Below are positions 34,519 through 36,981 of a DNA stretch of 37,728 nucleotides, in pieces; the first letter of the stretch is position 1, and each line of letters starts with the position of its first letter. A program made the position numbers and the translations under genes. The notes under the pieces are model-generated. The model ran no database searches, was not told the origin of the DNA, and was given only the letters and a program-made list of their open reading frames with translations. The stretch lies in assembly GCA_964531755.1 (NCBI GenBank), contig CAZHGG010000001.1, positions 4,446-42,173 on the forward strand, in the 5' to 3' direction. The DNA comes from an uncultured Polyangiaceae bacterium (lineage in GTDB: Bacteria; Myxococcota_A; Polyangia; Polyangiales; Polyangiaceae).

Positions 34519-36981
34519 ATGCTCACCCTCCCCCGCGCTCCCCGCGCCCTGGTCCCCGCGTCTCCTCCCCACCACCCGCGCTCTGCGGCGAGCTCGGCGA
34601 TGGCCATGGCTCCCACCGCGCCTGCCTGGCAGCCTCACCTGTCGCTCAAGCTCCGCAACGCGACGACGGGCGTCAACCCGCGCGATCACCAGCTCGCCGC
34701 GTGGGACCGAATGACTGCCCACTACCTCCAAGAGGGCAAGCAGGCTGGAATCGTCGTCGTGCCCACCGGCGGCGGGAAGACGGTCCTCGCCGCCCACTGG
34801 CTGCTCGAGCACCACATTCGCAACGGCGGCCGCGTGCTCTGGCTCGCGCATCGCCGCAGCTTGCTCCGCCAGGCCATGAGCACGTTCCACAACCTTGGAA
34901 ACGTGGCCTATCCGAAGCCGGCGCTGCACTTGGCGACGGTCTCCTCGACCGACGCGAAGTGGACCACCATCAGCACCGACCACGACGTGGTGTTCTCGTC
35001 GATGCAGACTGGCGTGCTCGACACGAACCTGGGCTTCGTCGAGGCGTTCGTGAAGGAGGCCCCGAGCGGTACGTTCGTGGTCGTCGACGAGGCCCACCAC
35101 GCCCCCGCGCCGAGCTACGCCCGCCTTCTGCGCTCGTTGAAGTCCTGGGACTGCAAGCTCCTCGGTCTGACGGCGACGCCCGTGCGCGCGAACGACGAGG
35201 ACGCGAAGCGACTCGCGGCCCTCTTCGACATCGAGAGGCCGCACAATCGGCCGCTCTACCAGGTCACACGTCGCCAGCTCACCGATCAGGGCATCCTCGC
35301 CCACCCGGCCTTCACGACGGTGAAGACCGAAGTGAACCTCGAGAAGGACTTCACCCCCGAGGACTACCGGCACCTCGAGCGCTACGGCGAGATGGGCCCG
35401 AACGTGCTCCACCGGCTCGCGAAGAACGCGCACCGCAACAAGCTCATCGTGGACGAGTACAAGAAGGGAAAGGCCAAATACGGCCCCACCATCATGTTCG
35501 CCGCCGACACGCTCCACGCGCAGACGCTCGCCCACGAGCTGCAGAAGGCGGGCATCGACGCGGACTATGTCGACTACAGCCGCAAGGACGCGCAGGTGGT
35601 CATGGAGAGCTACCGAACCCGCAAGAAGCCCGACGTCCTCGTGAACGTCGAGATGCTCACCGAGGGCTTCGACGCGCCGCACACGCGCACCGTGTTCATC
35701 GCGCGTCCCACGCGCTCGCCTGGCCTCGTGTCGCAGATGGTCGGCAGGGCGCTGCGCGGAAAGAGGTCCGGCGGAAACGAGATTGCTCACCTCGTGACGT
35801 TCCGTGACACGTGGGAGCAGTTCGACGTGCTCGACACCGAGTACGTGCTCCGCGAGGCCGAGGACTCCGAGAAGCTTCCCGAAGTCACCACGCCCAGCCA
35901 GCTCGTGGTCATTCCTCCGGAGCTCGTGACGGAGGCGTACCGCATCCTCCAGAGCAACGTCCGCGGACACCTCGTCGGCGTGTTCCAGTGCCTCCCGCAC
36001 AGCTGGTACGCCTGGATCGAGGTCCTCGAAGACGACCTCCAACCCCGGCACGTCATGGTGTTCGACAACCAGATCGCAGGGTTCGAGGCCCTCCTCGCCG
36101 CCTTCCCCACGAGCGAGGGGATCCCGGAGGAGATCACCGAGGACTTCGCGAGGGCGCTGGTGCAGCGCTTCTTCGTGGACGTCCCCGATCCGCTTCCCCG
36201 CTGGGCCGACGTGGCGGCCCTCCTCCACGCGAGGCGGAGCGACTTCGGCATCACGCACTACACGTTCGAGGAGAAGAGCGCCTTCGACCCGAACGCGCTC
36301 GCTCGGCAGATCCTGGAGCGGAAGCTAGCGAGACTCGAGGAGCACGCGTTCCTCCAGGGCGTTTGGGACGCGAACCAGGCCTGCCGAAGCGTGTACCGCG
36401 ACGATCTTCGGTCTTTCCTCGAGGACGTGTCGGCCGAGATGCTCGAGCTCACCGCGCCGCCCCCCGCGAAGCTGGCGCCGGAGATCGAGAGAATCGTCCC
36501 GCAGTCTGCGCCGCGCGCGTGGGGCAAGGGAGAACAAGGCTATTCGCTGGTCGGCCTCCGTCGCAGCGTGCTCAGCATCAAGAAGCACTTTCCGGGCGGG
36601 CCGCCTCCCGTGTCCGAGATGCGTTGGTCGGAGCGGCCCACCACGCGACTCTGGGGCTTCTGTCGCTACTCGGACAGGAGCATCACGCTCAACTGCGTCC
36701 TCGACTCGCCGGATATCCCGTACTTCGTTTTGGAGTACCTCATGTTCCACGAGATGCTCCACGCCGACATGCCAAGCGCTGGCCACAACCGCGACTACCG
36801 CGAGCGAGAGCGTGGGTACACACCCTCGGCGGAGGCCCTGGAGGACGCGGAAAGACGCGGGATCCGGCCGGGGGCGAACGCGGGGCCGCTGTTCTGGTAC
36901 GTCACGGCGGACCGGTTTCTCGGGACGTTCGACCGGTATTACCTGCACAAGGCGCCGGGGACGACGATGGAAGTGGGGTGA
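34519..36981 (+). CDS. SF2 helicase (type III restriction res-subunit-like, paralogous to 9053..11701) fused to a C-terminal DUF45/YgjP-like HExxH zinc metallopeptidase domain.
   Basis: Helicase motifs: [35 protein letters not shown]. The C-terminus [51 protein letters not shown] matches the DUF45 pattern (rWGsC...i.lN..L...p...leYVvvHELcH....H), with HEMLH at 36748-36762. The start is ambiguous: ATG 34519, or ATG 34600/34606, which would remove a Pro/Ala-rich leader. Confidence 0.85.
   Translation: [820 protein letters not shown]

Follow-up and report, generated by a model that had tools for sequence, protein, structure and literature searches.

A helicase with a predicted zincin-type protease effector in a defence island of an uncultured Polyangiaceae bacterium

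We analysed a 37,728-nucleotide stretch of DNA from an uncultured Polyangiaceae bacterium (contig CAZHGG010000001.1, positions 4,446 to 42,173; the window), which has a G+C content of 67% and represents a defence island. Our subject is a gene near its right end, helicase-zincin, whose product joins a superfamily 2 (SF2) helicase core and a middle domain to a C-terminal domain of the SprT/DUF45 zincin type. With moderate confidence we regard this protein as an autonomous translocase of the defence island that carries a predicted protease effector, and as a representative of a large, uncharacterised protein family; this assignment is based on sequence comparisons and structure models. On the far side of a bacteriophage exclusion (BREX) operon the window holds a second helicase gene, helicase-amidoligase, in which a related core is fused to an Amidoligase_2 domain. 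A preliminary description of the window had proposed that the two proteins install and remove the same amide-linked adduct or, alternatively, that they are different effectors on one sensor/motor module. Our results support the second idea.

The strongest evidence that the zincin acts as an effector is its exchange for an HNH domain at one terminal position of a conserved chassis. At least 120 full-length homologues of helicase-zincin were found (50–98% identity, mostly ~750–800 amino acids), all named solely “DEAD/DEAH box helicase” or “IRC3”, and at least 578 relatives occur among species-representative genomes. The family is abundant in Myxococcota, and several metagenome-assembled genomes (MAGs) carry two copies on different contigs. 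We characterized 85 genomic relatives using hidden Markov models (HMMs) of the individual parts. Helicase, middle domain and zincin were present together in 63 of them, and the HExxH...H motif was found in all of these but one, a truncated open reading frame (ORF). These 63 span Myxococcota, Planctomycetota, Cyanobacteria, Latescibacterota, Acidimicrobiia and Clostridia. Another 18 relatives possess the helicase and the middle domain without a zincin; they belong to Lachnospiraceae and other Clostridia, a Methanotrichaceae archaeon, two Myxococcota and one Chlorobiota. All eight zincin-less proteins that were read end in a canonical HNH motif (...DHIVP...N...LC..CN..K), as does the protein P0238, which matches Pfam HNH. 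The survey of C-terminal domains that had been suggested as a check for domain swapping thus returned zincin or HNH on the helicase-zincin chassis, and Amidoligase_2, PLD and TerB domains on the neighbouring helicases nearest to the ligase type. Phage copies of the full architecture were not found: phage matches covered at most 54% of the query and stopped within the N-terminal ~480 residues, such that none reaches the zincin. A description of the helicase-zincin fusion was likewise not found in the literature on DUF45/YgjP/COG1451, on SprT and defence islands, or on amidoligase and helicase.

The public gene call (P0241) places helicase-zincin at 34600–36981 on the plus strand (793 amino acids). 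The maximal ORF extends from a GTG at 34513 to 36981 and encodes 822 amino acids, to which all residue numbers given here refer. The start at 34519 that had been assumed before is probably too early, since the public call begins at 34600 and alignments of homologues begin at about residue 38–45. The helicase core comprises residues 45–440 (34645–35832, plus strand) and matches Pfam ResIII with 78 bits and Helicase_C with 39 bits. Both RecA-like domains are above the Pfam cutoffs and motifs I, II, III and VI are intact, which places the protein in SF2. The motif residues, including TATP and QMxGRxxR, show no variation among 50 homologues. Its best characterised relatives are RadD (6jde, 59.6 bits), SauUSI (7clg, 44 bits) and HsdR (3h1t, 43 bits). 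With the RadD/YejH model (NCBIfam NF053632) it scored 105 bits versus an equivalog cutoff of 720 bits and is therefore not a RadD orthologue; with the HsdR model (TIGR00348) it scored 44.8 bits versus a cutoff of 284 bits, without a match to HSDR_N, and thus falls outside that family as well. In PADLOC the mREase_IV model gave 65.9 bits over residues 45–416. Searches with Pfam and NCBIfam detected no nuclease domain (HSDR_N, PLD or PD-(D/E)xK), and no BREX protein model of PADLOC was matched, so that the protein does not count as a BREX component. For neither the full-length protein nor the ORFs neighbouring it did PADLOC, NCBIfam or Pfam provide a name beyond the helicase hits. The middle domain (residues 461–659; 35893–36489, plus strand) was delimited with an HMM built from alignment A1, which gave the window protein 304 bits. 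AlphaFold models the domain with confidence (model of residues 440–822); it had no family match and gave no fold match in a Foldseek search of the PDB. It is shared by the 63 zincin-bearing and the 18 zincin-less relatives, HNH variants included.

The C-terminal domain covers residues 685–815 (36565–36957, plus strand) and contains an HExxH-x7-H metal motif at 36748–36786. Among 50 full-length homologues with 48–81% identity, H746, H750, H758 and E766 do not vary at all, and conservation of E747 reaches at least 90%. The features typical of DUF45 are present in order, i.e. LWGFCRY...SITLN, then HExxH, then His-Asn followed by an aromatic residue, and these residues are invariant in the family. 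The match to the DUF45 profile itself (PF01863, YgjP-like) reached 20.9 bits (E 4e-4; residues 705–775, profile positions 134–199) and remained below the cutoff of 26 bits. Of the 50 homologues, 23 match PF01863 at E ≤ 0.01, the best with 5.1e-6, and two homologues carry a precomputed match. A comparison of the zincin profile with E. coli YgjP using hhalign aligned the motif on HELAHLKEKEHNKAF, albeit weakly (E 0.04). The SprT-like profile (PF10263) gave no match to the window protein at E ≤ 0.01, which leaves it outside that family. When the domain was searched against 1.84 billion representative proteins, 361 hits were obtained at E ≤ 1e-3, comprising helicase fusions as well as many stand-alone proteins of 200–400 amino acids. 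SprT-like matches were found for 34 of 60 stand-alone relatives (best 8e-9) and YgjP-like matches for 21 of 60, indicating that the domain lies between these two families.

The AlphaFold model of residues 440–822 has a predicted local distance difference test score (pLDDT) of 86 and shows strands at 263–287 followed by a helix at 298–313 (model numbering). Foldseek matched it in the PDB to projannalysin (4jix, probability 1.0), selecase and proabylysin (0.99–1.0) with a TM-score of ~0.6, and next to Wss1 (5xbn, 0.92–0.95); the E-values of these zincin matches were modest (0.01–0.2). The model thus displays the zincin fold of clan MA, with a sheet, the HExxH helix and a third metal ligand. As judged from motif and model, the C-terminal domain is a DUF45-type zincin at the level of fold and superfamily, while strict membership in PF01863 is not reached. 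The preliminary description had stated that the two helicases end in different domains, Amidoligase_2 in one and a DUF45/YgjP-like domain in the other. Both assignments hold: Amidoligase_2 (PF12224) scores 59.5 bits (cutoff 22) over profile positions 2–243 of 245, and the zincin is borne out by residue conservation, hits of its homologues and the model.

A partner gene of 360–420 amino acids abuts helicase-zincin in ~19 of 31 close relatives, mostly 3–5 nt downstream and sometimes upstream (e.g. L001:12360–13538 and L002:12364–13485, with ~17 other loci, all outside the window). It had no family hit in Pfam, PADLOC or NCBIfam. Its structure model (pLDDT 87) shows an N-terminal PLD-nuclease fold with the SauUSI nuclease domain as best match (E 6e-7); NgoAVII, NucT, Zucchini and the pseudo-PLD FAM83 come next. 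The histidine and the lysine of the HKD motif are not conserved and are missing in most members, so that the two-gene form has no other obvious catalytic effector besides the zincin. The partner has a novel C-terminal domain (RYWNAFG...HRGRIGGG), which in other proteins is fused to HNH or PD-(D/E)xK-like domains. A tblastn search found no trace of the partner in the window; the window copy thus corresponds to a “solo” form, like ~40% of the close relatives.

The neighbours of the relatives are mostly restriction-modification (R-M) systems, BREX, kinases, toxin-antitoxin and abortive infection (Abi) genes. Type I R-M occurs within 10 kb in ~13 of ~83 distinct loci, and ~10 close relatives have a PD-T4-6-like kinase at a distance of up to 1.5 kb, often directly upstream on the same strand (e.g. 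L002:8165–9862). The PD-T4-6-like kinase of the window is located 27 kb from helicase-zincin in the same island. In the reading that we favour, the ATP-driven SF2 motor would load on or track along DNA. Given the proximity to R-M and BREX genes, this DNA would probably be foreign or unmodified, and the middle domain may be the part that recognises the substrate. The motor would then bring the zincin to its substrate, a DNA-associated protein, which it would cleave where the HNH variants would cut DNA.

Several points weigh against this reading. PADLOC recognises only the helicase part of the protein. Peptidase activity and substrate are predicted from fold and motif, with a PF01863 match below the cutoff, and E. 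coli YgjP is reportedly a nucleotide pyrophosphatase in vitro. The window copy is without the partner found in ~60% of the close relatives and may work differently or be incomplete. Some relatives are located among housekeeping genes, as in locus L004, and four BREX-6 loci of Myxococcota (the window and three others) carry a relative at one border. Finally, co-occurrence was assessed within ±10 kb of the helicases, a scope that applies to the counts of shared loci given below.

One alternative, which we consider unlikely, is a housekeeping role in DNA repair. The protein would then clear DNA-protein crosslinks or other roadblocks, as a single-chain analogue of the eukaryotic combination of a helicase with SPRTN or Wss1, which are DNA-dependent proteases. 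In agreement with such a role, the best named relative of the core is the repair helicase RadD (by the NCBIfam score as well as by 6jde), the zincin resembles Wss1 and SprT-like domains, and the relative in L004 lies beside a UvrD-type helicase. However, the score far below the RadD cutoff precludes orthology, the family occurs patchily and some genomes hold several copies, and the neighbourhoods are mostly those of defence genes. In addition, sister lineages carry HNH in place of the zincin, and an exchange of this kind is typical of conflict systems and not of a core repair factor.

It is also rather improbable that the zincin is not an effector at all, but processes or regulates its own protein or the partner by autoproteolysis, or acts as a metal hydrolase other than a peptidase. 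Polyvalent proteins of phages and conjugative elements combine a zincin-like metallopeptidase with a SWI2/SNF2 ATPase, and for their zincins a role mainly in autoprocessing has been proposed (Iyer et al. 2017, PMC5512222). Like helicase-zincin they unite a zincin and an SF2-type ATPase in one polypeptide and take part in genome conflicts. They are, however, giant counter-defence proteins that are injected and that carry SNF2 motors and methylases, whereas helicase-zincin is a compact, chromosomal three-domain protein with a ResIII/RadD-like motor. Also consistent with a non-effector role, the best PDB matches of the zincin are self-inhibited zymogen forms of minigluzincins, and the RefSeq name of E. 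coli YgjP does not go beyond “putative metal-dependent hydrolase”. Against it, the zincin sits at the very end of the chassis where sister lineages have their HNH nuclease, which speaks for a role as effector, and the PLD fold of the partner is devoid of its catalytic histidine and lysine in most members.

A further doubtful alternative is that helicases of this assemblage, whichever effector they carry, are add-ons to BREX-6 (and type I R-M) in Myxococcota; they might for example strip proteins from DNA that is marked by, or stalls, the BREX machinery. BREX adjoins relatives in 5 of ~86 loci: the window and L035, L036 and L064 (all BREX-6 in Myxococcota), and L001 from Sorangium, where a close homologue abuts a BREX type 2 system. 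In L035 the relative is found directly upstream of brxE on the same strand, it also abuts the operon in L036, and L064 has the order brxD-brxHI-relative on one strand. The corresponding slot right after brxHI is taken in the window by helicase-amidoligase, and a C-terminal add-on of ~265 amino acids is common to the window BrxHI and to HsdR proteins encoded upstream of helicase-zincin relatives. Most relatives nevertheless have no BREX within 10 kb. Three plasmid BREX-6 loci, from Pseudanabaena, Aulosira and Azospirillum, are devoid of both helicase genes, which rules out an obligate BREX-6 accessory. Moreover, with multiple copies per MAG, as in Myxococcota, it becomes more likely that a copy lies next to any other defence system by chance. 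The words zincin, metallopeptidase, DUF45, SprT, amidoligase and GGACT are all absent from a 2026 survey of BREX diversity. The statement that the two helicases bracket BREX holds insofar as they lie on either side of the BREX-6 operon; helicase-amidoligase follows brxHI after 50 nt on the same strand, but helicase-zincin is not adjacent. It starts ~4.4 kb past brxE, behind several plus-strand ORFs and on the strand opposite (divergent) to BREX.

How closely the two helicases are related bears on the remaining alternative. BLASTP aligned helicase-zincin and helicase-amidoligase with 30% identity over 361 amino acids (114 bits, E 5e-30), restricted to the helicase cores. The two had been called clear paralogues. 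The aligned segments quoted in support of this are all present, but the proteins are neither close nor local paralogues. Compared with the 85 genomic relatives of helicase-zincin, the ligase helicase scored 73–128 bits (median 103), with 103.6 bits for the window copy. Since it scores ~100 bits against every member, the relationship is an old one between families and not a local duplication. Both cores gave lower scores with RadD (59.6 bits), SauUSI (44–54 bits) and an HsdR (43 bits), and almost nothing with BrxHI and DruE of the window, such that they are closer to each other than to any of these. On the other hand, the helicase-zincin core is as similar to the helicase gp68 of mycobacteriophage Omnicron (108 bits) as it is to the ligase helicase (114 bits), and it scored higher with a Roseobacter plasmid helicase (148 bits) and with a helicase fused to TerB (186 bits). 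For the ligase helicase, the closest relatives found other than itself were PLD-fused (195 bits), TerB-fused (150 bits) and helicase-zincin-type (107–129 bits) proteins. Local duplication or close paralogy is ruled out by the equidistant scores together with these equally close or closer phage and plasmid helicases. The concern that the two cores are no more similar to each other than to random res-like helicases is borne out in that they are not specially close: they are mutually closer than to RadD, SauUSI or HsdR, but a phage helicase is equally close to helicase-zincin and a plasmid helicase closer.

The proposal that helicase-amidoligase installs an amide-linked adduct which helicase-zincin removes, in concert with BREX, is suggested by the opposite chemistries on related cores and by the position of both genes around one BREX-6 operon, but we regard it as very improbable: tblastn with the window proteins found an amidoligase domain in 0/85 helicase-zincin loci, a helicase-zincin-type middle or zincin domain or a BREX gene was found in 0/23 metagenomic helicase-amidoligase loci, so that the two versions do not co-occur elsewhere within ±10 kb, the conserved neighbour of the ligase is a GGACT-like gene and not a zincin, the cores are equidistant across the families, and the three plasmid BREX-6 loci have neither gene.

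Helicase-amidoligase (9053–11701, minus strand; 882 amino acids) has its core at ~10172–11254 and its amidoligase domain at ~9341–10000. Its Pfam scores are 56.5 bits for ResIII and 57 bits for Helicase_C, and RadD is the best-scoring named family here too (NCBIfam 81 bits; 6jde as given above). The helicase-Amidoligase_2 architecture occurs in ~110 protein clusters. An AIG2/GGACT-like gene (7956–9062, minus strand; Pfam AIG2_2 39.8 bits, GGACT 25.9 bits) follows it, and since the start of this gene overlaps the stop of helicase-amidoligase, the two form a translationally coupled module. The GGACT-like gene is the sole conserved neighbour of the ligase helicase in the 23 metagenomic loci, with a homologue immediately downstream in 8 other loci. 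The pair at 7956–11701 is thus a two-gene module of its own, whose helicase shares a broad assemblage with helicase-zincin but comes from another, related branch of it. Iyer and co-workers are said to have described in 2009 the pairing of Amidoligase_2 (a COOH-NH2 ligase) with gamma-glutamyl cyclotransferase. The window pair resembles such systems in combining a GS-like amidoligase with AIG2/GGACT, and the helicase fusion is a sub-architecture among them; the likeness concerns the ligase helicase and not helicase-zincin.

Among characterised systems, the type IV enzyme SauUSI (7clg) and the HsdR translocases share with helicase-zincin an SF2 motor of the ResIII type and the residence in defence islands, and the SauUSI nuclease domain is also the best PDB match of the partner's PLD fold. 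In the reading that we favour, helicase-zincin would act as they do, as a motor joined to an effector. They carry nuclease domains, whereas helicase-zincin has a C-terminal zincin instead and fails their family cutoffs; the PLD fold of its family's partner is without HKD in most members, and the window has no partner. Of the named helicase families, RadD (YejH) gives both helicases of the window their highest score, but the middle and C-terminal domains of helicase-zincin are unrelated to it, and 6jde is absent among the Foldseek matches listed for residues 440–822. With SprT/Wss1/SPRTN, DUF45 (YgjP) and the metalloprotease domain of ArdC, the C-terminal domain shares a small zincin fold with HExxH, a downstream histidine and a preceding “WGxC...I.LN” strand. 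It differs from SprT, Wss1 and DUF45 zincins by the helicase fusion and by scores below the thresholds of both Pfam families.

The remainder of the window is populated as follows. At its left end a DruE-like gene (64–3858, plus strand; 1264 amino acids) matches PADLOC DruE3 with E 4e-142. The match is confined to the C-terminal part of the profile, positions 1033–1675 of 2055. It is followed by a 404-amino-acid ORF (3747–4961, plus strand) with homologues in L006 and L010. Together the two ORFs suggest a Druantia-type system, of which components perhaps lie past the window edge. The PD-T4-6-like Ser/Thr kinase is encoded at 4993–7866 on the plus strand. The BREX type 6 operon (11752–30207, minus strand) is complete and comprises, in order of transcription, brxE, brxA, brxB, brxC, pglX, pglZ, brxD, a 258-amino-acid ORF and brxHI. 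It is supported by NCBIfam BREX_6_BrxE (223.6 bits) and BrxC (737 bits), by PADLOC BrxA (356 bits), BrxD (501 bits) and BrxHI (967 bits), and by Pfam matches to PglZ, Eco57I/N6_Mtase and BrxB. The 258-amino-acid ORF between brxD and brxHI (14886–15662, minus strand) matched nothing in Pfam, PADLOC or NCBIfam, and no homologue of it was found in the loci compared.

The BrxHI of the window has 1045 amino acids and is ~340 amino acids longer than BrxHI of the plasmid BREX-6 loci (704–722 amino acids). Its extra C-terminal ~265 amino acids (11770–12565, minus strand) had no family hit, but are 47–53% identical to the C-terminal add-on of type I HsdR proteins encoded 2–5.6 kb upstream of helicase-zincin relatives. 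Copies of this add-on were located at L013:6935–7822, L031:3492–4286 and L030:4124–4915. A weaker relative (29% identical) is present in a 362-amino-acid ORF at L085:6531–7619, which ends 40 nt before an HNH-type relative of helicase-zincin. From its conserved RNxFxH motif (Rx4H, HEPN-like) the add-on could be an RNase attached to defence translocases. On the Aulosira laxa plasmid3 (L155:18893–24287) a second BrxD-like/BrxHI-like (Shango-like) set follows the BREX-6 operon; it does not belong to the helicase-zincin family. The helicase modules downstream of brxHI thus vary between BREX-6 loci.

At least three plus-strand ORFs with database support lie between BREX and helicase-zincin, with homologues in L029 and L013. 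An ECF-sigma-like ORF (30231–30836; TIGR02937, E 2e-6) and a 377-amino-acid ORF (31593–32726) are positioned between brxE and a Lon-like gene, and have homologues in L013 and L029. The Lon-like gene itself (32686–34461; 591 amino acids), directly upstream of helicase-zincin, matches LonB (TIGR02902, E 2.7e-4) and TPR_MalT (E 6.5e-6). Its residues 145–235 weakly resemble the Lon catalytic domain, with a “GSSLGLS” serine and an “APKLEAL” lysine, and are followed by tetratricopeptide repeats (TPR); a homologue is found near the helicase-zincin relative in L029. On the minus strand a 676-amino-acid ORF (32050–34080) had no family or homologue match and was discarded as probably spurious, since the overlapping plus-strand ORF has a homologue in L029. 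Downstream of helicase-zincin, a 120-amino-acid ORF (36983–37345) had no matches in the family searches.

A bolder version of the protease reading, to which we give little weight, would see helicase-zincin as a protease that tracks along DNA in the service of methylation-based immunity (type I R-M, BREX) and degrades DNA-bound proteins while translocating. Candidate substrates would be phage anti-restriction or DNA-protecting proteins, or stalled restriction or BREX translocases. If this were true, the protein would be a prokaryotic single-chain counterpart of crosslink repair by a helicase with SPRTN, recruited to immunity, and the HNH nuclease of the sister lineages would do an equivalent job.

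The arrangement of the window is best explained by the clustering of defence genes: the two helicases flank BREX-6 here because such genes cluster, rather than because of a common adduct, and we advise against annotating them as a writer/eraser pair linked to BREX. If the reading of helicase-zincin as an autonomous translocase with a predicted protease effector is right, it defines a widespread uncharacterised helicase-effector family, with 361 clusters for the zincin subtype when fusions and stand-alone proteins are taken together. Its effector would then be a protease and not a nuclease, an unusual choice among motor-driven defence proteins. The exchange of zincin for HNH would provide a natural experiment on what the motor and the middle domain sense. 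DUF45 genes accompany type I R-M loci, which has long been seen without explanation, and the helicase-zincin family could give a first functional handle on zincins of the SprT/DUF45 type.

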